Assembly (NCBI GenBank): GCA_963665015.2
Contig: CAXXSY010000005.1
Span: forward strand, 4,301-68,300
Source: Candidatus Cloacimonadales bacterium
GTDB lineage: Bacteria > Cloacimonadota > Cloacimonadia > Cloacimonadales > JAIOQZ01
Length of the DNA: 64,000 nt
Direction: 5' to 3'
Shown piece by piece: positions 1 through 32,593 of the stretch. The translations under genes were made by a program, and so were the position numbers. The notes under the pieces are model-generated. The model was not told the DNA's origin, did not search any database, and saw only the letters and a list, made by a program, of their open reading frames with translations. Within the stretch, counting starts at the first letter, position 1. Each line of letters begins with the position of its first letter.

Positions 1-19
1 CAGTATTAATAACGGACTA

Positions 20-3000
20 ATGGGGGTTTACTGTATTGGATATAAACTCGAGAGAATCAACAGCAATGAATTCGTACTCGCAAATGAGATAGGAAAATAT
101 CGATGGCATTGGGAATTTGATACTGTTACAGATGATAATAGCAAAGCTAAATATCTGTTTAGTGCTAAAAGCCACTTTGCAGGTAACAACGTTGATCCTC
201 ATGTTTATCAGTACATTTTAACGAATCGGAAAACAGGAGAATCTTCTATCCCGAAGCACAAGTTTGTAGATGGAACATATCGTCTTACAGTGCGTACGGA
301 AGATATCGAAGGCAATTCCGATGAAGAAGTGATAGAATTCAGCGTGACCAATGCCGGCACGATACCTGATTCAGTAATATCTACACATGAGACTTGGTCA
401 GGGGTCGTGCATATACCTTATGATGTGCATATAACACAAGAAGGATCCGTCTCGGTATTACCTGGCACCGTGATTGTTTTCTACGACCAAACACGGATGC
501 AAATAGACGGAGGATTTTCAGCGAACTTGAATGGTAGTGGAGACCTTCCTACGATCTGCCCCATGAATCCTGATAATGGATCATGTTCTATCTCGGTATC
601 ATCATCAGCATCCGCCGATTTCGAAGATTTCACTATTAAGGATATTCATATTTATAGAGATAACAATAGAGACGAAATAGTCGGCATCATCAATATCACA
701 GATAACGACAACGTCTCATTCGAAAACTGCCGCTTCATCAACTGCTCGAGTGATTTAGGTGGCGTTATCTATTGCGATAATTCGGATATCAGCATCACCA
801 ACTGTGAGTTCAAATGCAACACAGCGCAATCAGGCGGGGCTATTTATATCGAGAATAGCGATCCGACATTGATCGGCAACCTGTTCTGGAACAATAGCGC
901 CGATAACGGTTCGGCAATATACGCAACGGGCAGCAATCCCGTTATTGTCAATAACACCTTCAGGCATACACTTTACGAGATCGGCCAGAGCGTGATTTAT
1001 CTGGCGAACTCGAGTCCGGATATCTACAACACGATAATCTACAATGAGGTAGATAGCCCAGCCAACTGCTCCATACACTTGAGCGGATCTTCTCAGCCAG
1101 ATTTTTGGAACTGTGCAATCTTCAACGGGCAAGCGACCTTCATTGGACAACCTTTCTTGGGGACATATCAGAACATCATTGAAAGCGATCCTCAGTTTGT
1201 GGATAACTATCAGGTCGGTTACATCATCGAAAACAACTCGCCGTGTGTAAATACCGGCCAATATCCAGTACCCGGTATCACGCTTCCATTAAATGATCTC
1301 GCTGGAGGAACTCGCATCGATGAATCAGTTGTCGACATCGGGGCATATGAGACTCAGCAGAGTAGTGGCGATATCCATGTATCAGGTGATATTACTGAGG
1401 ATACATGCTGGAGTAGCGATGTCGTATATATCGATGATGATGTGAGCGTTCTCGAAAATGTCAGCTTAACGGTGCTACCCGATGTTGATATCGTACTTGC
1501 CGCTAGTTGTGACTTTGAGATAATCGGATCAATACACATCTATGGCTCGGAAAACGAGCCTGTCAATATCTACTGCCCCGTTAACTCGATAACAGGAGCA
1601 ACCTTAACCATCAGCGATCCCTATAGTTCACTGAATACATTGAGAAACGTAAACCAAAGTCGCAGACAAGACGGCATCACAAGAGATGAAGAATCCGCTA
1701 CATGCTTTTCGCACTGCCTCTTTAACTCGGTTGGTGGAGGCTTGAACGGTGAAGGCGTGAAGGTCGTAGTCGCCTCGCAGGAAGAGGTTATCTTTGAGCA
1801 TTGCAGCTTCAGAAACGCTGGCCCAGAAAGCAATGGCGGGTGCCTTGAAATCATCAATTCGTCTCCCATAATCAGAGATTGCGAGTTTACTTCCGGCAAT
1901 GCGGTGTCCGGCGGAGCTATCTATGCGATCAATTCAAACTTCATGTTGCTTGCCAGCATACTGCATGATAACAATGCTACGAATGGAGGAGCGATCTACC
2001 TTGATGAGTATTGCTCACCATTTATTGCAAACTGTACCATTGTCGATAACACCGCAGACTATGGAGGTGCGCTTTTCTGTTATGAAGATACTGCCACCCC
2101 CATCGTGGTTAACAGCATCTTATACTCCAACACAGCAACGGAAGGCGCGCAGGGCTATTTCTACAATTACGGCGGAGTAGGTCAAGGACCTGACGATGAT
2201 CCAACAGGTTTCTTCTACTGCAACATTCAGGGAGGTATTGACAGCCTCTATGTCTATCTCTCAGAAACTCGTAGAGGTGCTTCAAAATTGCGCGCTGGCT
2301 CTTCAACCCGATCAAGCAGAAATGGATTGTACAATGGTAGCTATGAATCAAATATCGATTGTGATCCCTCGTTCATAGCAAACTCTTTCGAACTGCGAAA
2401 TACTTCTCTGTGCATTAACAGGGGTACTCTAGAAGATTGGAGTATTGTATATGATATACATATCAACAACGACCTTATTGGATATCCCCCCACTGACAAC
2501 CTGTATGATATTGGAGCCATAGAAAAGGTACACTATGGCAGTATTTCGATTGGCGGGGTGATTAGTGAGGACTGCTTCCTTCTCGCTGACACGATTTATG
2601 TCTCAACCAACTTGACGATAGCACAAGATGTAACTGTTTTGGTGGATACACTTGTATCCTATATCCAATTTGGTGATGATGTGTCTGTTCTGATTCAGGG
2701 AAGTTTGGAAATTGCTGGAACTGAAAATGATTCGCTCCAATTGTGCGCAATTAATGGTTCAACCAACTGGAAAGGTATGAATGTTGGAAGTACTGGCTCT
2801 CTAAAACTTGCGTTTGCCAGGATGACCGATTCCGCCGCTTCGACGGGAGGAGTTATATCTACTTCTGAAGGCTGTATCGTTACGATATCAAACTGTGAAT
2901 TCAATGACAATCAGGCCACCTCGGGGGGGGCACTTCACGTCAATGGAGGTGAGATACGTATTAATAACACTCTGTTCTGCAACAATGTTGCTAACAATGG

Positions 3001-5989
3001 CGGAGCGATATATCATGTTGATAGCGATACGCTCGACATTGGCCAATGCGTTTTTTCAGGGAATATTGCGGAAGGCACAGGAAATGGTGGAGCAATTTTC
3101 TCAAGCAGTTCCGTCCGTATGACGAATAATCTTTTCCATGATAACATTGCAGTGAATGGAGGGGCTATTTATCAAGAGGATGGAGATATAATTTGTCTCA
3201 ATGCAACCATCATGGGAAATCAAGCATCTCTTAATGGTGGAGGTATCGCATTTAATCGCGATGCTGAGGCTCTACGTTTCGCTCTCTTGAATTCAATTAT
3301 TCGCGGAAATCACGACTCAAACGAAGGTCCATCACAATTCTCTGCCTTGGTGGGTAATCATATTCATATTGCATATTGCAATATTGAAAACATGATGGAT
3401 GAGATATATGATAATCATACCTTTGAAGGGGTAGCGACAGCAGTTTGCGATTATAATCCCGGCTTGAAAGATATTGAATCTGGAGACTATACGCTGGCTC
3501 ATTTCTCGCCATGTATAGATGCTGGCGCACCCACCCCTCACTACCTTTTCTCACACGAATACTCGTTATTCGATAATGATTTCGGCCATGAACCATCTGG
3601 CATGCATTTCGATCAAGGTTTCTGTGAATTCACCGATCCTGCTGGTTGCGAAGTGAAACCAGGCGGATTACATTTTGAAGACACATACATGGGGCGTAGC
3701 TCTTCCGTGTGCTTTACCATTAGAAACAGGGGAACAGAACCACTGATAAGAATCAATGGGATAGAAACGCCTTCAGATTATTTCACCGTTTCTGTTGATA
3801 CTACAAGTTCTACTGGTGCACCAATCAGGAATCAGCTTCGTCGAAAAGAAGAGAGAACAAAAAAAACTCGCCAATATGTTCGAAATTCAAGAAGAAGTAA
3901 CCAACTCGCTCGAAAAGAAATGAGTAGAAGAAATCCAGAAATGCCTTTTGTAAGCAAGAAGAAGGACACTGATTTCAATAACCAGAGCCGTGCAGAAAAG
4001 GCAACTCGTACAAGGTCTTTTTCTCCTATCGAACTAAGTCCTTTTAAGGAAGTGACAATCAGAGTCGACTTTGCTCCAATGCTTGAAGGCACATTTAACG
4101 ATCCGATGTGTATCAGTATCGAATCATCCATTGGTCGCGATGTTATATTGCCTGTTTACGCAACGAGTCTTGATCCAACGGTTCATATCGATTCTGTTGT
4201 AACCTGGACGGATTCTCTTTATATTGATTATCCTGTAGTCGTTGACATTACTGGAACGCTGAACATCTCTAATAATACAGAGATAACCTTTGCTGGTTTT
4301 GGTAAGATTGTCTGCAATGGCGGAACGTTCAATCCCGGAACGGGTGTTTCTTTCATCGGAGAGCCAGATAATTCTGAAGATGGAGTCTATCTGAACATCT
4401 GTTCTCAAATCTCCTTTCTGTCCAGCGAGTTTGTCGACACAAGACTGATTTCACATAGTACTGCTGTGCAAATAGCGAGCTCGTATTTTACCGACTGCTA
4501 TATCGAACATTGTAACAAGGATTTAACAATAGAACAGTCGCAGTTTTCTGGAACCAATGTAAATGCTTTTCGTTCTGTTTTCGGAGGCATGGGGTCTCAA
4601 AATGATTGTATTCATATTGAGCTAAGTGATTTCAATTTCTCAGAATACACGAATCTTGTTTCGATAAGCTCTTACCCAAATTTTGAAATGAACGAAAATA
4701 ATTTTTCAAACTACCAAACAGCTCTTTGGATAAATGAGTCCGGGTTTGGCAAATTGCATGATATCGTCGATAATACGATCTTCAACAATGAATATGGTTA
4801 CGGCATTGAGATTTATCATTCAACTGCTACCATTACTGGCCATAACGTAATCAATAACAACTACATCGGTGTTGCGGCTGTCAGGAATTCCGATGTAACA
4901 ATAAATGGTTCTTGTTATTATCCGTATCAATCGATACATAATAATTTCAATGCCGAATTAGTGTTTGCAAATGATAGTTTCCCAATTCTTTTCTCAAAAA
5001 ACCTGATATACGATCAGCTTTATGGGGACAATCATTTGGTAAGGTGTGTTCATCACAATGCAGATACGCTAGTCGTCGAGGATAACTTTTGGGGGGCTTT
5101 TACACCGACCGAGCACCTTTCCCCGTATGAGTATTATGATTATAATCCTCAATGGATTCCGGGTGATAGTGTTTTCGTGGATTACGATCCAGCTCTGGAG
5201 CTGTTTTCTTCTGCTGAATACAACATGACGCTGACAAACTACTTGCTGGCAGAAACTCAATATAAACAAGTAGTATCCGATTACCCAAGAACTAGATATG
5301 CGAGGACCTCAGCTATAAAACTAATATCTCTTGAAGGTCTGACAGGTGGTGATTATACGGATTTGCAACTTTACTATTTAAATGAGCCTAATTTACATTA
5401 CGATGAACAGGACAGCTTGCTGGCGATTTACCTTTACAACTTGTGCATGATAAAAACAGGGAATTATCCTGCCGCGATTTCCTGGTTCGAAACAATCATT
5501 GATGATCCGCGCTCTGAAGCAGATTCTATTTATGCCGTAATTGATATCGGATATACGTACCTCCTGATGGAGTCAGATAGTCGTTACAGAGGTTATGTCG
5601 GAAGATACCCGCAGTACAAACCCAGATCGTTTGATGATTACCTGTCAAATCGTGAAACCTTGCTTAAGGATATGCTTGATCAAACCACAGAAGCAGTTCC
5701 AGAATTACCTGTATACGTAGTTCTTGAGCAGAATCACCCCAATCCATTCAATCCGGAAACAACGATCAGTTATTCAATTCCTGCGGAGGGACAAGTCTCG
5801 CTAACTGTTTATAATATCAAGGGGCAGAAGGTAATTACCTTGGTTAATGAGATTCAGGAAAAAGGAAAACAATCTGTCATCTGGAAGGGTGTTAATTCAT
5901 ACGGGAAATCAGTATCATCAGGTGTCTATCTGTATAAATTGGATGCCTGCGGAAAGTCAATAACTAGAAAAATGCTTATGTTGAAATAA
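20..5989 (+). CDS. Giant secreted parallel beta-helix (Pmp-like repeat) protein with a T9SS C-terminal sorting domain; probably 5'-partial
   Basis: The frame is open back to base 2 and no signal peptide follows the first Met, so the true start is probably upstream of the window. It has four repeated modules rich in GGAIY / N-x-A-x-x-GGA and FxxN motifs. The last ~85 aa (NHPNPFNPETTISY..YNIKGQKV..SGVYLYKL..KMLMLK) form a T9SS type-A CTD. Confidence 0.8.
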   Translation: MGVYCIGYKLERINSNEFVLANEIGKYRWHWEFDTVTDDNSKAKYLFSAKSHFAGNNVDPHVYQYILTNRKTGESSIPKHKFVDGTYRLTVRTEDIEGNSDEEVIEFSVTNAGTIPDSVISTHETWSGVVHIPYDVHITQEGSVSVLPGTVIVFYDQTRMQIDGGFSANLNGSGDLPTICPMNPDNGSCSISVSSSASADFEDFTIKDIHIYRDNNRDEIVGIINITDNDNVSFENCRFINCSSDLGGVIYCDNSDISITNCEFKCNTAQSGGAIYIENSDPTLIGNLFWNNSADNGSAIYATGSNPVIVNNTFRHTLYEIGQSVIYLANSSPDIYNTIIYNEVDSPANCSIHLSGSSQPDFWNCAIFNGQATFIGQPFLGTYQNIIESDPQFVDNYQVGYIIENNSPCVNTGQYPVPGITLPLNDLAGGTRIDESVVDIGAYETQQSSGDIHVSGDITEDTCWSSDVVYIDDDVSVLENVSLTVLPDVDIVLAASCDFEIIGSIHIYGSENEPVNIYCPVNSITGATLTISDPYSSLNTLRNVNQSRRQDGITRDEESATCFSHCLFNSVGGGLNGEGVKVVVASQEEVIFEHCSFRNAGPESNGGCLEIINSSPIIRDCEFTSGNAVSGGAIYAINSNFMLLASILHDNNATNGGAIYLDEYCSPFIANCTIVDNTADYGGALFCYEDTATPIVVNSILYSNTATEGAQGYFYNYGGVGQGPDDDPTGFFYCNIQGGIDSLYVYLSETRRGASKLRAGSSTRSSRNGLYNGSYESNIDCDPSFIANSFELRNTSLCINRGTLEDWSIVYDIHINNDLIGYPPTDNLYDIGAIEKVHYGSISIGGVISEDCFLLADTIYVSTNLTIAQDVTVLVDTLVSYIQFGDDVSVLIQGSLEIAGTENDSLQLCAINGSTNWKGMNVGSTGSLKLAFARMTDSAASTGGVISTSEGCIVTISNCEFNDNQATSGGALHVNGGEIRINNTLFCNNVANNGGAIYHVDSDTLDIGQCVFSGNIAEGTGNGGAIFSSSSVRMTNNLFHDNIAVNGGAIYQEDGDIICLNATIMGNQASLNGGGIAFNRDAEALRFALLNSIIRGNHDSNEGPSQFSALVGNHIHIAYCNIENMMDEIYDNHTFEGVATAVCDYNPGLKDIESGDYTLAHFSPCIDAGAPTPHYLFSHEYSLFDNDFGHEPSGMHFDQGFCEFTDPAGCEVKPGGLHFEDTYMGRSSSVCFTIRNRGTEPLIRINGIETPSDYFTVSVDTTSSTGAPIRNQLRRKEERTKKTRQYVRNSRRSNQLARKEMSRRNPEMPFVSKKKDTDFNNQSRAEKATRTRSFSPIELSPFKEVTIRVDFAPMLEGTFNDPMCISIESSIGRDVILPVYATSLDPTVHIDSVVTWTDSLYIDYPVVVDITGTLNISNNTEITFAGFGKIVCNGGTFNPGTGVSFIGEPDNSEDGVYLNICSQISFLSSEFVDTRLISHSTAVQIASSYFTDCYIEHCNKDLTIEQSQFSGTNVNAFRSVFGGMGSQNDCIHIELSDFNFSEYTNLVSISSYPNFEMNENNFSNYQTALWINESGFGKLHDIVDNTIFNNEYGYGIEIYHSTATITGHNVINNNYIGVAAVRNSDVTINGSCYYPYQSIHNNFNAELVFANDSFPILFSKNLIYDQLYGDNHLVRCVHHNADTLVVEDNFWGAFTPTEHLSPYEYYDYNPQWIPGDSVFVDYDPALELFSSAEYNMTLTNYLLAETQYKQVVSDYPRTRYARTSAIKLISLEGLTGGDYTDLQLYYLNEPNLHYDEQDSLLAIYLYNLCMIKTGNYPAAISWFETIIDDPRSEADSIYAVIDIGYTYLLMESDSRYRGYVGRYPQYKPRSFDDYLSNRETLLKDMLDQTTEAVPELPVYVVLEQNHPNPFNPETTISYSIPAEGQVSLTVYNIKGQKVITLVNEIQEKGKQSVIWKGVNSYGKSVSSGVYLYKLDACGKSITRKMLMLK

Positions 5990-6007
5990 TGCCTACAGAA
6001 GGATACG

Positions 6008-6040
6008 GGAGAGTCTTCAACGACTCTCCTATTTTCGTTT
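6008..6040 (+). terminator. Rho-independent terminator after the beta-helix gene
   Basis: Hairpin GGAGAGTC-TTCAAC-GACTCTCC (6008-6029) followed by TATTTTCGTTT. Confidence 0.6.
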
Positions 6041-6118
6041 AATACTCTCTGTGAAGCCTTGTACGATGATACAAGATTCCGGTAATTCATCAATGGCAAA
6101 GACACTCCGTCTAATCCC

Positions 6119-6997
6119 CTAAACCACCACCTCCGTCCCTGTCCTGCACTTCCAGTGGAACGGCGGAAAGGGCGTGTGGCTACCTGAGACGCCGGTAGGA
6201 CTGCCACTTGCGTTTCTCTCGATCTGGTCGTCGCTAACCCACGGAGCGAGTTCCTTCGTGTGTTCTCGCGCGGATTCGAGGCTGTGCCGCTTCGGATCGA
6301 TGGCCAGCAGGTCTTCCATCACCTCGAGCGCGTCGGAGAGCGGATAGGCCTTGTTTTGCGCGGCAAGGGCGCGGCAGATATCCGACGTGCGATCATCGAG
6401 CACAACCACCAGCCGGTAGTACTTCGCACCAGCCTTGCGATACCCTTCCAACCTTCCAAACTCGCGGATTCGAAGAGCAGTGTGTTCTGCCAAACCCTGC
6501 CAGTAGTGCTGCGACTTCGCGCCCAAGTCCTTGAACTGCTCCGCGAGCTTCTCCTGCAGCATCTTTTTCGTGTAGCCGGACGCGACGGCTTCGGTGAGGG
6601 TGCTTCGAAACTTCTGCGAGATGTCGGCGCCGTATCGTTCACCGATCCAGAAGAGGTTCTGGCGGGTGATGACCGTCTCGAGCCGCTTCTCACGCGCTCC
6701 ATACAAGCCAATGCTCGTGTTGTGCGGAACCTGCTTCTGCGCGTCGTTCAGGCCCAGCAGCATGCACCGCTGGATGTACGCCTTCGTCTCGGCGCGCACA
6801 GCGGACGAAAAATCCTCGCCGAGGTTGGAGTCGATGACGGCGAGAACGTCGTCGATATGTGTCTTGTTGAGCCTCTCGTGACGTGGTATGCCGGAAAGAG
6901 CCCTGATGGCTTGCGTCGCCGACTCGCGTACTTCGCGCTGCCAGGCATTGTTGAGCACCCGGTAGTACTCGAGCATGATGCGGTCGAAGTAGGTCAA
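6119..6997 (-). CDS. Phage head morphogenesis protein, Mu F / SPP1 gp7 family
   Basis: C-terminal PPFHWKCRT motif (the family's PP-x-H-x-x-CRC signature) and position next to the terminase. The start is a TTG, and the gene directly abuts the terminase stop with no portal gene between them. Confidence 0.75.
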   Translation of the reverse strand: MTYFDRIMLEYYRVLNNAWQREVRESATQAIRALSGIPRHERLNKTHIDDVLAVIDSNLGEDFSSAVRAETKAYIQRCMLLGLNDAQKQVPHNTSIGLYGAREKRLETVITRQNLFWIGERYGADISQKFRSTLTEAVASGYTKKMLQEKLAEQFKDLGAKSQHYWQGLAEHTALRIREFGRLEGYRKAGAKYYRLVVVLDDRTSDICRALAAQNKAYPLSDALEVMEDLLAIDPKRHSLESAREHTKELAPWVSDDQIERNASGSPTGVSGSHTPFPPFHWKCRTGTEVVV

Positions 6998-8633
6998 AAC
7001 CGGAAGCTCCTGACGCGCGTTCGGTTGCGACCGGTGTCGTATTCGGGGAAGCGTTCGAGGCAGCCAGCGAGGGCGTCCGGGCCGTCCACATAGCCCTGCG
7101 GGTAGGTGAGAAACTGGCTGATAAGGGTCGGCGTGTCCTGCCCGTCAAGGAAGACGACCTTGCCGGTCTCGATGACGGTGTCGACGCGCTCGATGCGCAG
7201 GGCCTTGTTGCGGTCGTTGTTGACTCGGCGGATACGGTGCGAGATGGGGTTGCGTCCGTTCTCGCGGCACCAGCGGTCGAAATCGGCGAGGATGCGGTGC
7301 TGTCCGTAGTTGGTCTCCATCGCGGCGCGAAAGCGGACTCCGTAGCGACGCGACAGCTCGTCGCAGGCATCGTAGTAGAAGGCGAAGAAGCGGCTGTTCT
7401 CGGTCTGGCGCACCCAGCAGTGGATCACGTAGAATTTCAGGCCGTCGTAGCCGATGGAGATGATCGCCTTGTAGCAGCCTGTTTGAACGAAGTGAAAACC
7501 GCCAGCGCCAGGTTTTTGCGAAGCAAAATACCGAGAGCGACTACCTTTAATGTGGGGTCGGCATACATCCAGACCCGCTTCATGCGTTTGGGAAGGCGAG
7601 AATATCGCTTGAACCAGTGGTGCTTGAACATGTTGCCTTCGATCACCGGCACGCCGAGAAACTCGCGCTGGTAGCCCGTGTGACCGAACTTGCGGCGGAG
7701 CAGCGGCAACTCGCTGGTGGGGTACTGCCGCTCCCAGACCGATTTGCCGTCATCGGTTTCCAGAGAGAAGCGCAGGAGCCGTCTTCCCTCTGCGAACAGA
7801 GAGTGGCGGCTTTCGGAGAAAACGCCAGCCTTCGCGGAGCGCACGTCGTCTGGGTTGAACGTGTCGTTGTCGGACTTGATCTCCTCGACGATGGCCTCCA
7901 TGAACTGGCAGATCGCGTAGTTGGGGTGGACGAGGTTGCCAAGCCAGATAACCTTGCCGCTTCCCGATGGGTCGAGGGCGCCGCCGATTTCTTGCACGAT
8001 CTTGTCCATGCGCCGCCTGCCGATGGTCTGGTTCCCGACGTTCTCTTCCTTGTCGATGTCGTCGCAGACGATGAGACCGGGGCGCGTGGAGGTGCGGGGG
8101 TTGATGGAGCCGCGAAAGGACTGCTTCACACCACGCGCGCGGATGCGACAGCGATTGCGGAGGTAGAAGTCGTCCTCGGTCGTGTCGATAGGACGCAGGT
8201 CGTCGAAGTCGCCGAGTAGCCGCTTGTTGTTGGTCAGCTCGTTGAAGGTGAACGCTGTCCTCTCCTCGGCCAAATCGACGTCGGCGGCAGTATGAATGAC
8301 GTAGCGTTCACCCTTGATCACGCGCCAGATCGGATACACCACGCCCATGAGCACCGTCTTGCCCAGTCCACGAAACCCCGTGATGGCGGTGACGCCAGAC
8401 TCGGCTTCGAACACCTCGAACTTCTCGCGGTGGCAGTCGCAGAACGGGTGCTCGAAGATGTGCGGGAAATAGCTGCGGCAGAAGAAGGAGAAGGACGTCC
8501 AGCCCTCAGCGGTAGCACGGTCAATGCGCTCCTTGCGAGCTTGCGGGGAGTCGTCGGGGAAGGGTTTGACCGACGGTGTCTTCGCCGCGACGGACGTGAA
8601 GAACCGCAGGTCTTTCTGGGTCGGCTTAGGCAT
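6994..8633 (-). pseudogene. Terminase large subunit, disrupted by a frameshift
   Basis: ORF 7437-8633 has a Walker A-like GFRGLGKT, a Walker B LIVCDDID and the nuclease entry WMYADP, then runs into nonsense. The nuclease continues in another frame (..CYKAIISIGYDGLKFYVIHCWVRQ..) as ORF 6994-7428. Both frames are open across 7437-7570. The switch probably lies near the CCTTTAA run at 7544-7550. Confidence 0.8.
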
Positions 8634-9105
8634 GACCGGCGCGACTCATGAAGTAGGCCACGAGTCCGTCTTCGCCGAGTATCTCGCGCTGGATTGTTTT
8701 GGCAGTCGCTTCGTCGCCTCTTGCGTGGTAGAAATCGATCTGCCAGTCCAGGAACCGCTTCATGTGGTCGATCAAGTCCTTACTGGGCTCCAGCTCCTTC
8801 TGGTACTGCTTGAGGAGCGAAACCAGCGACTGTAGCGCGGTGTCCTGCGGAACCTCTGCGTATTCCCTGAGGGCACGGATCAACGCACGTTTGACCGCGA
8901 TGTCGATCTCCTCTTCGAGATGGCGCACCTCGTCGTATTCGTCGTCCCACTTGCCCTTGCGGATCCAGTTGCGGACGGTCTTGTCCGCCACCTCGAACAT
9001 CCGCGCCAGAGCGGCGATGTCGGTCTCACCCTTGAGATAGAGCCGCTTGGCCGACTCGCGCTTACGCCGATACTCTTTGCTGTTTATAACGCTTGAGCAC
9101 GCCAA
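8626..9105 (-). CDS. Terminase small subunit-like HTH protein (Mu gp27-like)
   Basis: N-terminal HTH (LYLKGETDIAALARMFEVADKTVRNWIRKGKWDDEY), immediately upstream of and overlapping the large terminase. Confidence 0.5.
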   Translation of the reverse strand: MACSSVINSKEYRRKRESAKRLYLKGETDIAALARMFEVADKTVRNWIRKGKWDDEYDEVRHLEEEIDIAVKRALIRALREYAEVPQDTALQSLVSLLKQYQKELEPSKDLIDHMKRFLDWQIDFYHARGDEATAKTIQREILGEDGLVAYFMSRAGHA

Positions 9106-9376
9106 TCAGCGCGCCCTTCTCGGTTTCGGTCAGGTAGGTGATGGAGGACTTGGCGAACCTGCTGGCGATGAAGCCGTACAGCTTCTCGTAACTCCAGCTC
9201 GAACGCTTGTACATCGCCCACACCAACTTGCCTTGTGAGTCGAGACGCTCGTACACCTTGGGCTGATTGCCCCGGAGCACAAGGTTCAGTCTGACCAGCG
9301 CAGGCAGGCTGAGCTTGCGCAGCGAGGAGCCGTAGCTAAGCTCTTCCATGCGCTCGTGAAGCTGCTCGACTAGCAA
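9062..9376 (-). pseudogene. C-terminal fragment of a Mu early protein (possibly GemA/gp16-like)
   Basis: The frame stays open upstream into the AT-rich cassette with no proper start. The tail ..SSITYLTETEKGALIGVLKRYKQQ resembles GemA-type proteins; this is a from-memory assignment. Confidence 0.3.
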
Positions 9377-9393
9377 TAGCGTTCGTTGTTCAA

Positions 9394-10395
9394 CTATTTC
9401 AGTAGCAAATGGAGTATTACTGGAATAATAAAACCACTAACAAGAACTGTGAAAACGATGAATTTGAAAACCCGTAAGGCTTTCTGTGACCTTCTATTAG
9501 ACAGCCCGATGGCAATGGCGGAATTGGGCGTCAGCTTTGGTAGAAGCCCAAGACCAATGAAATGTAGAATAACGTAGCCAAGTATGCCACCTAACATACT
9601 GAAAATAAAAATCCACCAAGGACCATTTTTCTGATTCAATATATAGTCAAGATACATATTAAATTTCAATAGAATTTCTGGCTGACTTTTTATCTCCTCT
9701 AACGTATGTACTGTTCTTTCTCTTTGTCCATGCGTAAGGAGAAAAGCAGTGCTACGAATTCCAATAAACATGCCAGCAAAGCCTGACATCTGTGCTGCAA
9801 TTGCTATGAACCATTTGTTTCGAAACACCCAAAGTGGTCGATATATACCGTTTAGCCTAGTTGTTGAAATATATGGATGCAAATTGCTAAACACCATTTC
9901 AACCCAGTCTTGATTCGTACCAGATATCTCTAGATCGATAAAAGAGTGCCCATAGTCACCAGGGGCTAGCTCTTGAATGGATAGCTTTTTCTCAGTCATG
10001 AGAAATAGCGATACTTTACCAGCAATTGGTGAGCCATTTTCAGTAACTTGGAATGATCTCCATTCAAGTGAGCTGCTCTCTGGATCCTTCTTGTTGCCTG
10101 CTTTAGCCAGATATTCATCAAAGTCTGAGTATGACACAGTCGTTAAATCTTGGAATCGAGTAACAGAGTTAAATGATACATTAGGCATATCTAACTTCCC
10201 GAATTGATCAATGACTTCTATGTTGATTGATTCAACAATATCGTCCGTGATGAAGAATGGGAATACAAATTTCTGACCTTTACAATATTTGCCAAATGAA
10301 TCCTCATATATCTTTGCAATGAAGGTCTGAAGTAATTCGTTTGGAATGTATAAGGAGTTTTTCTTGGGATCATCAGGTAAGTTTGGATCTGACAT
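9394..10395 (-). CDS. Membrane protein with a ~200-aa N-terminal soluble domain and 3 predicted TM helices; cargo of AT-rich cassette 1
   Basis: The preferred start is the ATG at 10395 (MSDPNLPDD..), preceded by GGGAGG. TM segments are WFIAIAAQMSGFAGMFIGI, WWIFIFSMLGGILGYVILHFIGLGLL and FKFIVFTVLVSGFIIPVILHLLL. I recognise no domain. The DNA is visibly AT-rich inside GC-rich phage sequence. Confidence 0.7.
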   Translation of the reverse strand: MSDPNLPDDPKKNSLYIPNELLQTFIAKIYEDSFGKYCKGQKFVFPFFITDDIVESINIEVIDQFGKLDMPNVSFNSVTRFQDLTTVSYSDFDEYLAKAGNKKDPESSSLEWRSFQVTENGSPIAGKVSLFLMTEKKLSIQELAPGDYGHSFIDLEISGTNQDWVEMVFSNLHPYISTTRLNGIYRPLWVFRNKWFIAIAAQMSGFAGMFIGIRSTAFLLTHGQRERTVHTLEEIKSQPEILLKFNMYLDYILNQKNGPWWIFIFSMLGGILGYVILHFIGLGLLPKLTPNSAIAIGLSNRRSQKALRVFKFIVFTVLVSGFIIPVILHLLLK

Positions 10396-10424
10396 GGCTC
10401 TACCTCCCAACAAAGCTTATGATA

Positions 10425-10453
10425 AATAAAGCTATTCCTGTCTATTATGTCAA
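10425..10453 (-). promoter_or_regulatory. Sigma-70-like promoter of the cassette-1 gene
   Basis: On the minus strand: TTGACA (10453-10448), a 17-nt spacer, then TTTATT (10430-10425), about 30 nt upstream of the ATG. Confidence 0.4.
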
Positions 10454-10464
10454 TTTATTTTGTT

Positions 10465-10629
10465 CTATACAATTTTATCCTTATCGCGGGTCAGCTTCTC
10501 GTGCAGGCTGATCGCCCGTTTCATCACCCGATTGACCACCGCGTCCCGCTTCACAATCGCGGGGTCGATTATCTTGGCCGGATACTCGTTGCCATGCTCA
10601 TCCGTCAGTGTTTTCTGCGCTCTTGCCAT
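10465..10629 (-). pseudogene. N-terminal stub (54 codons) of a Mu-like early protein (DUF3164-like)
   Basis: AGGAGCATAC-ATG, then MARAQKTLTDEHGNEYPAKIIDPAIVKRDAVVNRVMKRAISLHEKLTRDKDKIV. The reading frame dies exactly where GC-rich DNA gives way to the AT-rich cassette. The family call is from memory. Confidence 0.35.
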
Positions 10630-10638
10630 GTATGCTCC

Positions 10639-11148
10639 TTACGCCGTCACCGCCACACCGGGCGTTTTGACGGCTTTCTTCTTGAGTTTACGGAATATCT
10701 GCGTATCGACGTCATGCCCAACACCGCCGAGATTGCTGGAGTCGGTGACGGCGTAGACTTTGTCGCGTATGCCGATGACGCCAGCCGAGGCCATCGCCTG
10801 CATGTAGTAGACGATCTTGTGGTGGGTGCATTCCATCACCTCGATCAGGTCGCGCTGGCTGGTGTATCGTCCGTCGATGAGCGTGTGCAGCAGCTTCCGC
10901 ATGAAATCGTTCTCGTAGCCATACCGGTTGAACCGCTTCAGCTCTTCCGGGGTGTCGTCCTTCACGTAGATGTTCCATTTTCCGTCCTTGGAGATAACCT
11001 CGACCACCTGCGTCTCGCGCAGGAACACCAGCATCTTGATCGTGTACTTGATGTCGATGCCGGTCTCCGCGCTTACTTCGGCGGCGGTGAAAGGCTTTCG
11101 GGTGTACTCCACGAACCTTCGAATCGCTCTCGCTTTGCCACAATCCAC
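10639..11148 (-). CDS. Phage hypothetical protein, probable tandem winged-helix
   Basis: A GC-rich ORF directly downstream of the B ATPase. No diagnostic motif found. Confidence 0.5.
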   Translation of the reverse strand: MDCGKARAIRRFVEYTRKPFTAAEVSAETGIDIKYTIKMLVFLRETQVVEVISKDGKWNIYVKDDTPEELKRFNRYGYENDFMRKLLHTLIDGRYTSQRDLIEVMECTHHKIVYYMQAMASAGVIGIRDKVYAVTDSSNLGGVGHDVDTQIFRKLKKKAVKTPGVAVTA

Positions 11149-11157
11149 TGCCGCCTC

Positions 11158-11880
11158 CTACGCGATCTTGGCCTGTTGCAGGTGCTCGAGACCGAACTCG
11201 GCGATGTCCAACTCGCGCGCGATGCCCTCGATGGAATAGAGCGATTTCACCAGCTTGCGGATGTTGCCCTTGGTCTTGCCGTGCAGGTACTTGACGATGT
11301 CGCCGCTGAGCTTGACCGACGCTACCTCGTCGCAGATATGCTGGATGTCGTCCCTGCCCAACTCCTTGAACTCGCAGAAGAAGTTGCAGCGGTCGAAGTA
11401 GTGCGAGTCGGCCATGAGCAGCCGGTCGCGCGCGTCCGCCATACCGACAAGGATCACCACCGAGAGCGTCTCGTCCACGATGTCGCGTATGGCTCCGAGT
11501 AGCTTGCGCATCTTGAAGGCGTAGTCGATCTCGTCAATGACGATGACCGTGTTGTCGTGCATGCGCAGGATGTTGATCACGGTGTTGAAGATGTCGTTGG
11601 TTGTGCCGCGCGGTCTGGTCTTGGTCATGCCGAAGTGGTACTGCACCAGCTCGAGCAGCCGGATGGAAAACGACTTTGCCGTCATGGTCGACTCGAGCCG
11701 CAGGTAGATGTAGTCGTCGCGGATGGCGGTCTGCCGCGCGAAACGACTTTTGCCCAACCCGGGCTGACCGTAGATCAATCCAAGTCCGACCATTTCGGTC
11801 TTGGGGCGGTTCAGCAGGTAGCTGATCATCTTTTCGGCTTCTCGCACGTTCTGGGTGCGAACCAGCGATAATTCTTTCAT
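11158..11880 (-). CDS. MuB-like AAA+ transposition ATPase
   Basis: Walker A GQPGLGKS and Walker B VIVIDEID, positioned immediately after the transposase remnant. Confidence 0.8.
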   Translation of the reverse strand: MKELSLVRTQNVREAEKMISYLLNRPKTEMVGLGLIYGQPGLGKSRFARQTAIRDDYIYLRLESTMTAKSFSIRLLELVQYHFGMTKTRPRGTTNDIFNTVINILRMHDNTVIVIDEIDYAFKMRKLLGAIRDIVDETLSVVILVGMADARDRLLMADSHYFDRCNFFCEFKELGRDDIQHICDEVASVKLSGDIVKYLHGKTKGNIRKLVKSLYSIEGIARELDIAEFGLEHLQQAKIA

Positions 11881-11889
11881 TGTATCCTC

Positions 11890-12612
11890 CTAAAGTCCTA
11901 AGTTTTCAAACAGCGAGTCGAGCTTCTTGAGCGGGTCGTCCTGCTCCGCTGGCTCGATAGTGGATGCGTCGGTTTGATATGTTACCTCGATGGCTTCCTC
12001 GTGCGGACTCGGCGTCTCACCCTGCTCGAGCAGTGGCTGGTTGTTGAAGCTCCCCGAAGCCGCAGGCAACTGCGGCAACGGCATGGATGACACAGCCTCG
12101 TCGACCTGCTTGCGTAGAATGGCCGACTTGGTCTTGACGTCGCTTTCGAGCTTGCGCTGATGGGCGAGTTGTCGCTTCAAGTCCTTCTCGGCGAGGGCAT
12201 CGTCGCCTGCGATCTGCACGAAGGGGTGCGTCAGCTTTCGCAACGCCGCCTGACAGATGAAGCGGTCGGTCTCGTCGAAGAGCAGGATCGAGCGCATGTC
12301 CATGATGTCGTAGCGGATGCGTAGTCGCTTGCCGACGTGCCTGACCATCTCGTCATGCCAGTAAAGCGCGTTGTTGAGCCGGATGCCGTTGTTGCCGACC
12401 TTGCGGCTGTCCGCCTTGAGCATCAGGAAATTCAGTTCGCTGGCGTCTATCCGGCGATCTTCCGGCGCGGGACTGCTCTTGAACAGCTCGAAAGGTTTCT
12501 GGTTGTGCAGTCCGCCATGCGGCGTGCGACCGTACAGCTCCTGAAAGTAGAAGCCGATGAGGGCTTTCGCCTGATCAATATCGAGGGCCTCGCGCTTCTT
12601 GAGCTTGCGCAC
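11890..12612 (-). pseudogene. MuA-like transposase, C-terminal remnant only
   Basis: It begins at the end of the integrase core (..FYFQELYGRTPHGGLHNQKPFELF) and continues into a Mu-transposase C-terminal-type segment (GIRLNNALYWHDEMVRHVGKRLRIRYDIMDMRSILLFD). The DNA-binding and DDE regions are absent. The frame runs upstream to ~12680, where AT-rich DNA starts. Confidence 0.7.
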
Positions 12613-12745
12613 CCACTCCTCGTTGCGATTGAGGTAAGCCGGTCGGTCGGCGATGGACCCGCTTGATGCGAGTGGGTATTGAAATACTTGACAGTACGAT
12701 CTCTGTTAGCAGAGTATACTAAAATGGAATACATTGGAGGGAGGC

Positions 12746-13735
12746 ATGCTTCAGGTTGTTATTGGAAGTATCTTCGACACTACATGTGATTTGCTCATTA
12801 TTCCTTGTGATAGTTTTGGTGGGGTCACACAGTCGGTTTTTACAAATCTAAAGAACAAAAAACTTCCTATATCGGCCGTGAATACTGAGTACGGCACTGT
12901 TAATATATTTCCCGCAAAATCTCAAATAGCAAGATACATAGGCTTTGCAGCATCTGTTCTTGCAGACACTTCATCTTCAGATGTCGGTGCAGTTGAGAAA
13001 ATTGCACGGCATATTGCCCGTTTTGCTGAGAATAATAAACTGCAGTTTGTTAATATTCCACTGCTTGGTGCTGGTGCTGGAGGGCTTAGGGCTTCAGAAT
13101 CGTTTGAGGTTTTTCGAAAGGTGTTTTCTGAATCGAATAACAATATAACGTATACAGTACATTGCTTCTCACGAGATGTCTTTGAATCCTTGAACTATGA
13201 GAATAAATCACTGCCAGAAGCATTGAAAAATCCAAGAGTTTTCATAAGCTATTGTGGATTTGATGGAGACAACACCATATGGGTTGATGGACTGACTAAA
13301 CGTTTGCGAAAAAACGGTATTGATGCTCGTATTGATTTGTATGATATATCTGCTGGGACAGATTTACCGAGTTGGATGACCTCTGAGATACTTCAAGCAG
13401 AAAAAGTAATCCTTGTGTGCGATAAAATTTATGTTGAACGTGCCAATTTAATGAAGCCCAGCGGTGTTGGGTGGGAAACGATGATTATACAAGCAGACTT
13501 ATTGTATGCTAATATCAACAACACGAAATATATAGCAATCATGCGAGAAAACAATGTTGATGAAGGATTGCCTATCTTTCAACGTTCAAAGCTTGCTCTA
13601 AATTGGTCTAGATTCAAGAATGTAGATGATATTGATGATAAAGAATTCAAGAAACTACTTCAAGCAGTATTTGAAGTGTATCAGAAACCACAATTAGGAC
13701 CCATTCCTAATTGGGTGAGAAATCCGAAAGTTTGA
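12746..13735 (+). CDS. Macro-like domain / TIR domain fusion protein (candidate anti-phage gene); cargo of AT-rich cassette 2
   Basis: ATG at 12746 behind GGAGGGAGG. The N-terminal half has VVIGSIFDTTCDLLIIPCDSFGG and VNIPLLGAGAGGL, the macro-domain signature positions. The C-terminal half has RVFISYCGFD..GIDARIDLYDI..AEKVILVCDKIY..GVGWETMII, a TIR/SEFIR-type pattern. Confidence 0.75.
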   Translation: MLQVVIGSIFDTTCDLLIIPCDSFGGVTQSVFTNLKNKKLPISAVNTEYGTVNIFPAKSQIARYIGFAASVLADTSSSDVGAVEKIARHIARFAENNKLQFVNIPLLGAGAGGLRASESFEVFRKVFSESNNNITYTVHCFSRDVFESLNYENKSLPEALKNPRVFISYCGFDGDNTIWVDGLTKRLRKNGIDARIDLYDISAGTDLPSWMTSEILQAEKVILVCDKIYVERANLMKPSGVGWETMIIQADLLYANINNTKYIAIMRENNVDEGLPIFQRSKLALNWSRFKNVDDIDDKEFKKLLQAVFEVYQKPQLGPIPNWVRNPKV

Positions 13736-13799
13736 TACCTTCTTTCTGCCAAAAGAGTATAACGTCAACCTCAACTGGCTTATAACCGGCAAGGGAGAC

Positions 13800-14369
13800 A
13801 TGTTTCTTCACGCCGAGGACGGCAGTTTGGTGACGAATGGACGCAAGGAGAAGCTCGAGGAGATGAGCGGGAACGGCGCGAAGGCTTCGCTTACACCCTT
13901 CGAGACGCGCAACATCACTCTGCCGCTCATGGGAGAAATCGCTGCCGGCGAACCGATGGAGAACAACGCCGCGCTCGACTGGGACTACATCGAAATCCCG
14001 AAGGCCTTTCTGCACGACCGCCATGACTCCTACTGCGCATTACGAGTCAACGGCGACAGCATGAAGCCGCGCATCAACCGCGGCGACATCGTGGTCATTC
14101 ACCAGCGCTCCGACTGGGACAATCTCGACCGGCGCGTCTGCGCGGTTCGCACCTCGGACGGCATCACCCTCAAGAAGGTGCAGTACAATCCGGTGAAACG
14201 GCAAGTGCTGCTCAAGCCTTTCAACTCTGACTTCGAAACTCTCGTCCTCGAGGATGAAGAACTGGCCCGTTTCCAGATCATCGGTGAGATGGCGATGCAG
14301 TTTCGTGTTTTCAACTATGCGACGCTTGGGGCGACATCGATTGAGCCGATGCGCGCAAGCGGTTTCTAA
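13800..14369 (+). CDS. S24 (LexA/CI-type) phage repressor lacking its HTH domain (truncated)
   Basis: S24 peptidase core: GEIAAGEP..LRVNGDSMKP..GDIVVIH..ITLKKV (Ser/Lys dyad). Upstream in frame (13752-13802), only the final HTH residues KEYNVNLNWLITGKGDM survive after a stop at 13716. Confidence 0.8.
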   Translation: MFLHAEDGSLVTNGRKEKLEEMSGNGAKASLTPFETRNITLPLMGEIAAGEPMENNAALDWDYIEIPKAFLHDRHDSYCALRVNGDSMKPRINRGDIVVIHQRSDWDNLDRRVCAVRTSDGITLKKVQYNPVKRQVLLKPFNSDFETLVLEDEELARFQIIGEMAMQFRVFNYATLGATSIEPMRASGF

Positions 14370-14583
14370 GCTAAACAGATAGAGCGTGTTACAGAAGAGT
14401 CAAGAGCTGCAAACCTTCTGCAAGAGTGGAACCGAAGTGGAAGAACCATCCCACAGAAACCTGCAAATGGAAAAAGTGCAAAAACGCTTTGAAAATGCGT
14501 GCAAGCAACCACCAGACAAACACCTGTGAGACCACTCAATCGTTTTTGCAGGATGGAAAGAAGGGTGTCAAATTACAGCTGTA

Positions 14584-14733
14584 AAGTGACACCCTTCATT
14601 TTCCACTTTGTGACAGCATGTTTTCCATCGTGCAACATGTCGAAGTGACAGGAAATGCCTTTAAATCTCGCCTTTTCATATATATAGGTGTAGTCACTTA
14701 CCCAGGTTGCAAGTGACGGCAGTTTTTCCATCG
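14584..14733 (+). repeat. Phage-end repeat array of remnant A (candidate transposase-binding sites)
   Basis: Same-strand copies of a ~21-bp motif: AAGTGACACCCTTCATTTTCCAC (14584), GTGACAGCATGTTTTCCATCG (14610), AAGTGACAGGAAATGCC (14643) and AGTGACGGCAGTTTTTCCATCG (14712). Confidence 0.6.
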
Positions 14734-25687: not shown

Positions 25688-26164
25688 CTACTTCTCACCA
25701 CTCCAGACATACAGCTTCCCACCGTATGCCACGACTTCCCCGATGACACCCTCTTCAGGTAGCTCTGTGACCTCCGCGATGATGTCGGTGGTCTCGAGCT
25801 TGATGTAGCCTTCCAGCGCGTGACCGTTGATCTTGGTGCGGGTCTCGACCTTGGCAGCGAGGGCCGTGGTGAGGCCTGTGATCTTGCTCTGCGCCAGCGT
25901 CGGGATGCGGTCGGTGGCGAGAGCGCCGGTAGCGATTTTGGCTGCATCGAGGTCTGGTACGCGATCCACGACGAAGATGCCGGTGGTGATCTTGGAAGCG
26001 TCGAGGTCGGGAATCTGACTCGTTTCGAGTACGCCTGTGATGTTGTCCGGCTCGATCTGCGGGATTTGCTCGGTGATCAGCTTGCCGGACTTGTCGAGCT
26101 GGGCGATGCCGTTGGCGACGCCGAGTTGTCCGGAGTCGAGAATTTCCTGCCATGTGCCTGCCAT
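25688..26164 (-). CDS. Phage tail-fibre-like protein
   Basis: Three IP-x-LDA-x-KI-type repeats (QIPDLDASKITTG, VPDLDAAKIATG, IPTLAQSKITG) and an N-terminal ..GVANGIAQLDKSGKL... It is GC-rich and is the last gene before the end repeats. Confidence 0.6.
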   Translation of the reverse strand: MAGTWQEILDSGQLGVANGIAQLDKSGKLITEQIPQIEPDNITGVLETSQIPDLDASKITTGIFVVDRVPDLDAAKIATGALATDRIPTLAQSKITGLTTALAAKVETRTKINGHALEGYIKLETTDIIAEVTELPEEGVIGEVVAYGGKLYVWSGEK

Positions 26165-26322
26165 TACGCCTCCTTCACTTCACGCTCGAGCCGCCCGAGC
26201 AGCAGCAATGCGCCTTCGGTCTTGAGCAGCTTCTCGCGCGATTCCTGGATGAGTCTCTGGAGCCGCTCATACTCGTGCGTCAGCTCCAGCTTGGTGGTCT
26301 GGTAGAGTTCGATTTGTGTCAT
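26164..26322 (-). CDS. Small coiled-coil phage protein (52 aa, not in the ORF track)
   Basis: ATG at 26322, encoding MTQIELYQTTKLELTHEYERLQRLIQESREKLLKTEGALLLLGRLEREVKEA, with stop TAA at 26166-26164. The start overlaps the upstream stop (ATGA) and the stop overlaps the downstream start (TAATG). Confidence 0.4.
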   Translation of the reverse strand: MTQIELYQTTKLELTHEYERLQRLIQESREKLLKTEGALLLLGRLEREVKEA

Positions 26323-26561
26323 GCGTTCTCCTTGTATATGTAGGGTTTTCCGTTCTTGATGAATACCTGCCCCGGCTTCGCCTCCGGCGGAAAATCCGCG
26401 CCACTGAGCACGAGATTCTCGTCATGGATACCGAGGTCTTCCTTCTCGTCTACAGTGGAGTAGATCGGCTTCACGAAGGCGATATCGCGGTCTGTGGAGA
26501 CCGTTGGCTTCGTCTTGCGGTTCAGTAAATCCCACACGCTGTTCTGACGAATCGTGCTCAC
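26319..26561 (-). CDS. Phage hypothetical protein (tail-fibre module)
   Basis: An 80-aa GC-rich ORF, translationally coupled to both neighbours by 4-nt overlaps. Confidence 0.45.
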   Translation of the reverse strand: MSTIRQNSVWDLLNRKTKPTVSTDRDIAFVKPIYSTVDEKEDLGIHDENLVLSGADFPPEAKPGQVFIKNGKPYIYKENA

Positions 26562-26992
26562 GTCTGCATCAACTCCGAGACCTTCTGGGCCAGCGTGTTG
26601 GACGAGTGAAGAACGTTTGCCAACGCCTGCAGGGCGTCCTCGTCCTGCGCGAAGGCGTCGATGATGTTGCCGAGGGTAAGCTGCGTTTCGATGGTCTCGA
26701 TGCGCTCCTCGAACGGCGAAGTCGTCGTCGCGTAGGTGTGGTCGACCTTCTTGATCTTTGAGCTGAGACCGCTGAAAAGCGTAACCGAGAGGTTGATCAC
26801 ATCGCCGTTCTCGACACCGCTCAGCTCGCTTCCATCGATGAACACGTATGTGCTCAGAACCGTTTCGTGATGCACCTCTGAGCCGTCCTTCTCGATGAGG
26901 ATTTCAGCCTGCGAGAAGTGCACTGTAGGCGAGGTGTTGAACAGGATGCGAATGCCGCCACTGCGGTTGACGACGTCCACGCCCAGCGTCAC
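26558..26992 (-). CDS. Phage structural protein, probably 5'-truncated
   Basis: GTG start only. The frame is open upstream to a TGA at about 27045, where GC-rich phage DNA ends, so the N-terminus is probably lost. Confidence 0.45.
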   Translation of the reverse strand: MTLGVDVVNRSGGIRILFNTSPTVHFSQAEILIEKDGSEVHHETVLSTYVFIDGSELSGVENGDVINLSVTLFSGLSSKIKKVDHTYATTTSPFEERIETIETQLTLGNIIDAFAQDEDALQALANVLHSSNTLAQKVSELMQT

Positions 26993-32306: not shown

Positions 32307-32325
32307 CTTCGTTTCAAACAAAATG

Positions 32326-32563: not shown

Positions 32564-32593
32564 CTTTCAAGGTTCCAGTACACGGAGGTTAAC

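Follow-up and report, generated by a model that had tools for sequence, protein, structure and literature searches.

A 64,000-nucleotide stretch of DNA from a Candidatus Cloacimonadales bacterium (assembly GCA_963665015.2, contig CAXXSY010000005.1; the whole stretch is referred to here as the window) harbored, inside the remains of a Mu-like prophage, a gene that encodes a single polypeptide in which a macrodomain at the N-terminus is joined to a C-terminal SEFIR domain of the TIR superfamily. This domain architecture, termed Macro-SEFIR, is almost certainly correct. The SEFIR effector module itself is already known; what is new is its pairing with a macrodomain in a defence-type enzyme. The family to which the protein belongs is probably a defence system, and we infer for it NADase activity and a sensor role of the macrodomain, although the complete proposal, namely a single-protein abortive-infection enzyme that depletes nicotinamide adenine dinucleotide (NAD+) and carries the macrodomain as a ligand-binding regulator, has about an even chance of being right. 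SEFIR and TIR enzymes hold a central place in immunity based on NAD+, whether in bacteria, plants, or animals, and the trigger that switches them on is often unknown. The sensor slot of Macro-SEFIR is filled by a domain whose ligand class is known (ADP-ribose derivatives) and is the same as the product class of the fused enzyme; therefore, the trigger is directly testable.

The Macro-SEFIR open reading frame (ORF; 12746-13735, forward strand) starts at the ATG at 12746, stops at the TGA at 13733-13735, and encodes a product of 329 amino acids (aa). A mechanical ORF list gave a TTG at 12734 as the start, and the family alignment gave the Met encoded at 12746, which is the start in 119 homologues. 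A strong Shine-Dalgarno sequence, GGAGGGAGG, was located at 12736-12744, one base before this ATG. The gene occupies an AT-rich island of 1.07 kb (approximately 12673-13745) with a GC content of 0.38 and a GC content at third codon positions (GC3) of 0.30, as opposed to a GC content of 0.59 and a GC3 of 0.77-0.87 in the Mu genes on either side. A preliminary description of this DNA had reported an ORF with its own ribosome-binding site, AT-rich within GC-rich phage-type DNA, and had quoted five peptide motifs from it; both the site and the difference in composition were confirmed, and all five motifs were found in the translation. The ORF is not a chance ORF because it has at least 364 database homologues of near full coverage. 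These are protein clusters at 90% identity, nearly all of 320-345 aa with a coverage of 98-100%, and the best non-identical homologue had an E-value of 3e-94.

The C-terminal half of the protein (residues 163-329) is, judging from its profile matches, specifically a SEFIR domain. It scored 48.2 bits against Pfam TIR_2 (cut-off 28) and 32 bits against Pfam SEFIR (cut-off 23), both above the cut-off, and both families were matched by all 32 family members that were scanned. The same half matched the PADLOC bSEFIR model at an E-value of 7.7e-46 and phrog_11745 at 1.7e-31, and a search of the Protein Data Bank (PDB) with the family profile aligned residues 166-309 to the solved Bacillus cereus SEFIR structure 5Y8E at 2.3e-34. 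The TIR/SEFIR-type pattern previously noticed in residues ~170-330 was thus upheld and sharpened to SEFIR. Of the solved structures, the B. cereus domain (5Y8E/5Y8F) comes closest to residues 166-309, and it has the GGVG-x-E-TMII motif in common with Macro-SEFIR. However, the residue before the Glu is Thr in B. cereus and Trp in Macro-SEFIR, and the B. cereus protein lacks a macrodomain. The B. cereus domain was interpreted as a protein-interaction module (Yang et al., 2018). Recent papers treat SEFIR as an NAD+-cleaving abortive-infection module.

Conservation was determined in an alignment of 148 representatives of 50%-identity clusters, which were retrieved with a SEFIR-only profile. At least 45 of these 148 best-scoring representatives contained the same macrodomain directly N-terminal of the SEFIR domain. 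At the start of helix C, the conserved acidic residue is E244, which follows W243 at the beginning of a helix (243-254) in the AlphaFold2 secondary structure. E244 was present in 44 of 44 macro-bearing representatives and in 104 of 104 representatives with other architectures. The preliminary description had made its candidate Glu after the Trp depend on such conservation, and the residue was found in every one of the 148 sequences. S168 (100%) and D197 (96-99%) were conserved across the same set, in macro-bearing and bSEFIR-type proteins alike. From its spacing, D197 is probably equivalent to D40 of bSEFIR, the mutation of which abolishes defence (Millman et al., 2022; 10.1101/2022.05.11.491447). 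On the basis of conservation, E244 is the candidate catalytic Glu; no catalytic residue was stated in the literature found on SEFIR.

The N-terminal half (residues 1-156) scored 20.5 bits against Pfam Macro (PF01661; E-value 4.9e-4), under the cut-off of 22 bits, and Pfam Macro was matched at an E-value below 0.01 by 16 of the 32 family members. Despite the score under the cut-off, the profile search, the AlphaFold2 model, and Foldseek settle that this half is predicted to fold as a macrodomain. The family profile matched TTHA0132 and PARP9 macrodomain 1 in the PDB (E-value 4e-5 each). The AlphaFold2 model had a predicted local distance difference test score of ~95, and its best Foldseek match was 2dx6 (E-value 6.7e-9, target-normalised template modeling score (TM-score) 0.80). 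All of the top 50 PDB matches were either macrodomains or designed proteins that share this fold and are grouped with them by Foldseek, and a fold search of BFVD returned only macrodomains. These results substantiate the macro-domain pattern that had been proposed for residues ~1-165 and, together with the SEFIR matches, the proposal that macro-like and TIR-superfamily halves are joined in one polypeptide.

The macrodomain of Macro-SEFIR has the same fold as macrodomains of the MacroD/viral type (TTHA0132, PARP9 macrodomain 1, alphavirus nsP3, and YmdB; TM-score 0.64-0.80). The secondary-structure elements follow the same order in both, and both contain the motifs GxxF..D..(N)..GG and PLLGTGxGG. 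The macrodomain elements of the window protein included GSIFD..CD (G7-D15), P20, and G25-G26-V27 as phosphate loop 1; this loop has ~4 residues fewer than its counterpart in PARP9 macrodomain 1. Phosphate loop 2 was N103-x-PLLGAGAGG (PLLG108-x-G110-x-G112) in the window protein, and the loop 2 PLLGTGAGGL of the family profile was near-identical to that of TTHA0132. D15, P20, P105, G108, and G112 were invariant across 35 clusters, most of which contained the canonical G-D-x-F adenine motif. In the sub-clade of the window protein, Ser replaces the adenine-contacting Asp of the MacroD/viral-type GDI, and an invariant Asp follows three residues further on. Where MacroD has its catalytic Asn, 23 clusters had Ser, 9 had Asn, and 2 had Asp, and the residue is Asp in the window protein; the MacroD-type catalytic Asn of the pattern N-x(6)-GG[VLI]D is thus not conserved in the Macro-SEFIR macrodomain. 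This conservation pattern across the 35 clusters indicates that the phosphate- and ligand-binding scaffold is strongly constrained, whereas the classical hydrolase residue is not. That the macrodomain serves as a sensor or regulator and not as an enzyme is plausible, with a likelihood somewhat short of even.

A pattern scan of 185,579 species representatives (one genome per species) identified 39 Macro-SEFIR loci in at least 10 phyla. These included Desulfobulbus, Ferrigenium, Zoogloea, Aromatoleum, Planctomycetes, Bacteroidales, Lachnospiraceae, Oscillospiraceae, Hungatella, Chloroflexia, Verrucomicrobia, Zixibacteria, Magnetococcales, and Anaeroplasmataceae, and the protein matches included a member from Leptospira harrisiae. 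Macro-SEFIR is thus a widespread, horizontally scattered, pre-existing family and not a local invention; the window protein formed a singleton cluster, and its nearest relative was 48% identical. The homologues are labelled "TIR domain-containing protein" in the databases. The preliminary description had not recognised the architecture as a characterised system. This stands insofar as no published description of a Macro-SEFIR or Macro-TIR single-protein architecture was found in the literature searched, but the protein belongs to a large family that had already been annotated under the TIR label.

The genes around the loci were annotated two to either side, with results as counts for families and not as calls for each locus. 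In a clustering of all neighboring ORFs, no other gene was common to more than 5 of the 39 loci. Therefore, the Macro-SEFIR gene acts alone, and a multi-gene system with a conserved partner was rejected. Some loci were clear defence islands, including one that lay between a CBASS operon and GmrSD, and other loci adjoined ParB-REase, AbiH, Fic, DUF4062, or IS110. The survey of homologue neighborhoods that the preliminary description had called for therefore gave a divided result, with part of the loci in defence islands and many in housekeeping neighborhoods.

The same SEFIR subtype was found elsewhere fused to the bSEFIR C-terminal domain, to an FGE-sulfatase-like domain, to NB-ARC/NACHT with TPR, and to DUF4268. 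A constant SEFIR effector combined with a variable sensor is the usual pattern, and by analogy the macrodomain would occupy the sensor slot. The macro subtype was seen only before SEFIR or, in one variant (P0129), before a ThsB-like TIR, and before no other type of effector. A search for the macro subtype with other effectors gave nothing beyond fragments and Macro+TIR proteins; the full-length family was apparently not listed again in it, so that its 17 matches are not a measure of family size. The variant P0129 is a protein of 288 aa in which a canonical ThsB-like/PDC-S66-type TIR replaces SEFIR behind the same macro subtype. It was seen on 14 contigs and adjoins polysaccharide-biosynthesis genes. 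P0129 suggests that this macrodomain pairs with TIR-superfamily enzymes in general.

The closest known system is bSEFIR, a single-gene defence system from Bacillus sp. NIO-1130 that protects against phi29 and is operationally defined by a SEFIR match at the protein N-terminus (Millman et al., 2022; 10.1101/2022.05.11.491447). The nearest relative of the SEFIR half is therefore an NAD+-depleting defence module demonstrated by experiment. The two SEFIR domains are homologous and have S168, D197, and E244 in common, both systems consist of one gene, and the expected output of both is NAD+ depletion and abortive infection. In contrast, the SEFIR domain is N-terminal in bSEFIR and C-terminal in Macro-SEFIR (163-329 of 329), and the C-terminal domain of 200-300 aa in bSEFIR is absent from Macro-SEFIR, which has an N-terminal macrodomain instead. 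In the PADLOC model (PDLC03957), the window protein covered positions 26-198 of 412 with 156 bits and other Macro-SEFIR members reached position 209 with 148-172 bits, whereas true bSEFIR members covered positions 35-384 with 313-376 bits. Macro-SEFIR is thus not a member of bSEFIR because its SEFIR domain is not N-terminal and the model was matched in part only. The family lies outside the current bSEFIR definition; therefore, defence-annotation tools probably miss it.

In type II Thoeris, an NAD-processing enzyme of the TIR superfamily likewise works together with a macrodomain, which reads a signal derived from ADP-ribose (ADPR). However, Thoeris is composed of two genes (ThsB, a TIR protein, and ThsA, a Macro-transmembrane protein) and uses a transmembrane effector, whereas Macro-SEFIR is one polypeptide without a transmembrane segment, and its enzyme is of the SEFIR type. 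No ThsA or ThsB match was obtained for the window protein in PADLOC, and Pfam ThsA_Macro was touched by 1 of the 32 Macro-SEFIR members (E-value 0.007). The analogy to type II Thoeris drawn in the preliminary description therefore does not hold for gene content, since the 39 loci had no conserved partner and no transmembrane effector. A genetic coupling between a macrodomain and an NAD-consuming enzyme is also found in DarTG and SirTM-MacroD, although these consist of separate polypeptides with a demonstrated hydrolase, whereas the two parts are fused in Macro-SEFIR.

From these comparisons, Macro-SEFIR may be pictured as a cytoplasmic two-domain protein in which the C-terminal SEFIR domain would be the effector, probably activated by oligomerisation as in other TIR/SEFIR enzymes. 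The activated SEFIR domain would cleave NAD+ by means of the invariant E244 and thereby starve the infected cell. The macrodomain, in the sensor or regulator slot, would bind an ADP-ribose-type ligand and gate or amplify the SEFIR activity; candidate ligands are the product of the enzyme itself, an ADP-ribosyl mark made by a phage, or an intermediate of NAD salvage. A more specific version would place the Thoeris logic in cis. SEFIR would produce ADPR or an ADPR-derived nucleotide, and the macrodomain of the same or a neighboring protomer would read this product, a phage ADP-ribosyl mark, or an intermediate of NAD reconstitution (ADPR-PP, ADPR-1''P), with binding leading to cooperative oligomerisation and runaway NAD+ depletion. 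This version is speculative and rather unlikely as it stands. If true, it would mean that TIR/SEFIR immunity can be activated by a logic that is new, and it could counter the pathways by which phages rebuild NAD+.

Several observations weigh against the proposal of an NAD+-depleting enzyme under macrodomain control. Canonical TIR NADases have a WxxxE motif with the Glu at W+4, unlike E244, which lies at W+1. The two-domain model had a predicted template modeling score of 0.52, so the inter-domain geometry is unreliable. A catalytic macrodomain is conceivable, given that the best PDB sequence match was PARP9 macrodomain 1. Most Macro-SEFIR neighbors within two genes were housekeeping genes, and the enrichment in defence islands from the two-gene scan was only modest. 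A promoter scan upstream of the ORF detected no site with a spacing of 16-18 nt. The window protein is the longest-branch full-length member of its family and carried 13 substitutions at 90 highly conserved columns, including HLK200-202 to DIS, against a family median of 1. The window copy may therefore be functionally shifted or decaying, although all 31 family-invariant residues were kept, among them E244 and both macro loops.

The alternative that fares best, although we consider it improbable at about the level of the in-cis version above, is a writer-eraser or self-immunity arrangement in which an active macro hydrolase reverses ADP-ribosyl transfer by SEFIR or destroys a signal made by SEFIR, which keeps the protein harmless until infection. 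Precedents are DarT-DarG, SirTM-MacroD, and PARP14/PARP9, the last with both activities in one chain. For PARP9 macrodomain 1, hydrolase activity has been reported. The best sequence and fold matches in the PDB included macrodomains of the MacroD/viral type and DarG, weak DarG matches were obtained in PADLOC and NCBIfam (E-value 0.025-0.037), and the catalytic-Asn position was occupied by Asn in 9 of 34 clusters. The almost exclusive occurrence of the macro subtype with TIR/SEFIR enzymes would also fit a substrate-product relationship. However, the catalytic-Asn position is mostly Ser and is Asp in the window protein, and the catalytic Lys and Asp of TARG1/DarG have no counterpart, since GYAASV and GTGAGGL occupy what we take to be the corresponding stretches. 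Furthermore, a fused eraser in equal stoichiometry offers no obvious route to the release of the toxin, and SEFIR has been reported as an NAD+ hydrolase and not as a transferase.

The unusual sequence of the window copy bears on a second alternative, according to which this copy is an inactive relic that is drifting toward a pseudogene, while the family itself is possibly functional. In favor of a relic are the deviations at conserved columns, which were clustered in the SEFIR half, the lack of a recognisable promoter or terminator, and the position of the protein as a singleton cluster without close relatives. In contrast, the reading frame is intact and of full length, the invariant residues are complete, the Shine-Dalgarno sequence is strong, and the substitutions are mostly conservative. 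A relic is therefore unlikely. Slightly less likely still is a non-immune function, in which Macro-SEFIR would act as an NAD/ADP-ribose enzyme in housekeeping or stress signalling (for example, in the regulation of NAD turnover or dormancy) and its position in the prophage remnant would be incidental. Many homologues do lie among genes such as DsrC, SelB, PolA, GlnE, IlvD, and ABC transporters, and no member was found in the phage and plasmid collections searched. However, a housekeeping enzyme is difficult to reconcile with the sporadic distribution of the family over 39 loci in at least 10 phyla, the lack of conserved synteny, the loci within clear defence islands, the validated defence module to which the SEFIR half is closest, and the presence of a second foreign cargo gene in the same remnant.

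Two Mu layouts served as rulers for the setting of the gene, that of phage KS10 and that of an unrelated Mu-like locus from a metagenome (L005). In both, the repressor is divergent from the ner-A-B operon and the control region lies between them. In the window, the order was Mu-F-like, a split TerL, TerS-like, a 104-aa ORF, a second AT-rich island, a 169-aa ORF, MuB, the MuA remnant, the Macro-SEFIR cassette, and the S24 remnant (Table 1). The MuA remnant matched only Mu-transpos_C in Pfam, without an rve domain or DDE triad, and aligned to approximately residues 334-525 of the 541-aa KS10 transposase, so that ~60% from the N-terminus is gone. The S24 remnant was 44% identical to an intact 246-aa Mu-type repressor with helix-turn-helix (HTH) and S24 domains, from residue 57 of the latter onward; the homology began at ~13746, 10 nt past the Macro-SEFIR stop, and the ~56 N-terminal residues that hold the HTH are gone. 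The cassette thus replaces the divergent early control region, since this is where the KS10 and L005 layouts place it. Three statements of the preliminary description about this locus therefore proved accurate, namely that the MuA-like ORF on the left retains only the tail of the core and the C-terminal domain, that the S24 repressor on the right is truncated at the HTH, and that the cassette sits at the site of the early control region. In the best explanation, the ~2 kb that were replaced held the operators and a ner-type gene, together with the parts that encoded the N-terminal 60% of the transposase and the HTH of the repressor; the replacing piece would be the Macro-SEFIR gene with its 73-nt leader and its own ribosome-binding site. 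No direct repeats, inverted repeats, or insertion sequence ends were found at the cassette junctions.

Insertion of the cassette destroyed both the transposase and the repressor, which leaves the element unable to transpose or replicate and without regulation. No portal, head, tail, or lysis genes were detected in the remnant, which contained nothing beyond Mu-F, and the split TerL is either a frameshift pseudogene or an assembly error. The surrounding element is accordingly not the Mu-like prophage of the preliminary description but a decayed remnant of 8.4 kb. No intact close relative was found in a scan of IMG/VR with the MuA remnant, and cultured phages matched the MuA remnant at only ~26% identity.

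A full-length Macro-SEFIR relative was found by tblastn in none of 50,697 phage genomes and 72,556 plasmids. The two-domain protein was also absent from IMG/VR in a pattern scan, a weak negative because two peptide patterns only were used, and from the viral predicted structures of BFVD in a fold search; the weak IMG/VR negative is strengthened by the empty tblastn and BFVD searches. Matches to the SEFIR half only were obtained in four distinct temperate phages and 160 plasmids. The preliminary description had called the gene a prophage moron, but a dead remnant, a family not found in the phage and plasmid collections, and a host-like composition contradict this, and Macro-SEFIR is a cargo retained by the host in a dead prophage remnant and not a moron of an active phage. 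That a functional Mu-like phage carries and spreads the gene as a moron selected for lysogen protection is thus highly improbable: Mu-like sequence on both flanks, the gene's own ribosome-binding site, and SEFIR-only genes in Klebsiella phage ST15-OXA48phi14.1, Escherichia phage 500465-1, and Clostridium phage D-1873 speak for it, whereas the wrecked transposase and repressor, the frameshifted TerL, the absence of portal and all downstream morphogenesis genes, a cassette GC3 far from the phage values and close to the host flanks, and the empty phage, plasmid, IMG/VR (pattern scan), and BFVD searches speak against it.

Table 1. Features of the Macro-SEFIR locus and the surrounding Mu-like remnant in the window.
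Feature	Position	Strand	Basis and remarks
Decayed Mu-like prophage remnant, host of the cassette	6000-14370		GC 0.59; 8.4 kb
TerL split in two frames (7437-8633 and 6994-7428)	6994-8633	-	Consecutive parts of phrog_38
Second AT-rich island, 339-aa membrane protein (ORF 9394-10413)	9380-10440	-	Composition; homologue search
Truncated MuA-type transposase (core tail and Mu-transpos_C)	11890-12672	-	Pfam, 2.7e-19
5' leader of the cassette	12673-12745	+	73 nt; Shine-Dalgarno GGAGGGAGG; GC drop
Macro-SEFIR gene	12746-13735	+	329 aa and stop; full-length homologues; start from family alignment
Predicted macrodomain, residues 1-156	12746-13213	+	AlphaFold2, Foldseek, profile against PDB
SEFIR (STIR-superfamily) domain, residues 163-329	13232-13732	+	Pfam, PADLOC, PDB 5y8e, PHROG
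GAA codon of E244, candidate catalytic Glu	13475-13477	+	Conservation; residue after W243
Truncated CI/LexA-type S24 repressor	13746-14369	+	Pfam Peptidase_S24, 3.6e-20; first ATG 13800

The second AT-rich island resembled the Macro-SEFIR cassette in composition, with a GC content of 0.382 as compared with 0.380 and a trinucleotide correlation (r) of 0.93. Both islands correlated with the host flanks (r 0.65-0.88) and were anti-correlated with the Mu block (r approximately -0.5). In the 339-aa protein encoded by the second island, the N-terminal part is soluble, and the C-terminal part is hydrophobic and appears to span the membrane; the protein had no match in Pfam, PHROG, or NCBIfam and only a weak one to Mem_02 in PADLOC. 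Its family is rare, with 16 matches at 34-43% identity, one of which sits among a group II intron reverse transcriptase, a HigB/HTH toxin-antitoxin pair, and RadC. The 339-aa protein may be a second defence-type cargo gene. With two compositionally alike foreign genes in 8 kb, the remnant illustrates how defence-like cargo can come to land in a dead prophage. The left edge of the remnant adjoins a 1989-aa protein (20-5989, forward strand) with beta-helix/PMP repeats and a C-terminal sorting domain of the type IX secretion system, which is taken to be host DNA; the sorting domain points to a host in the Bacteroidota or a related phylum.

Upstream of the Macro-SEFIR ORF, TTGACA (12688-12693) and TATACT (12715-12720) are separated by 21 nt, which is too wide, so the pair is not a canonical sigma-70 promoter. 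A terminator scan at the cassette found nothing convincing. The S24 remnant retained an ATG at 13800, from which an HTH-less S24 product (the C-terminal part of LexA/CI) could be made. The Macro-SEFIR stop lies 65 nt upstream of this ATG with no intervening terminator, so that co-transcription by read-through is possible. Beyond the S24 remnant, near the expected left end of Mu, a palindrome was present at 14557-14600 (22-nt arms, 86% complementary), which may represent either a terminator or a site related to the end.

The metagenomic locus L005 (JGI 3300037046, Ga0377237_000015, 1-9005) contains an apparently intact Mu-like prophage, and the S24 repressor of this prophage was 44% identical to the remnant in the window. 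A Macro-SEFIR homologue (P0024, 43% identical) was located ~6 kb outside the end of this prophage. The proximity may be a coincidence or may reflect a recurrent association between Macro-SEFIR and Mu-like elements. Elsewhere in the window, GC-rich blocks (0.55-0.60) at 26000-27000, 30000-36000, and 42000-47000 are set in sequence with a GC content of 0.42-0.50, which suggests additional foreign or mosaic segments.

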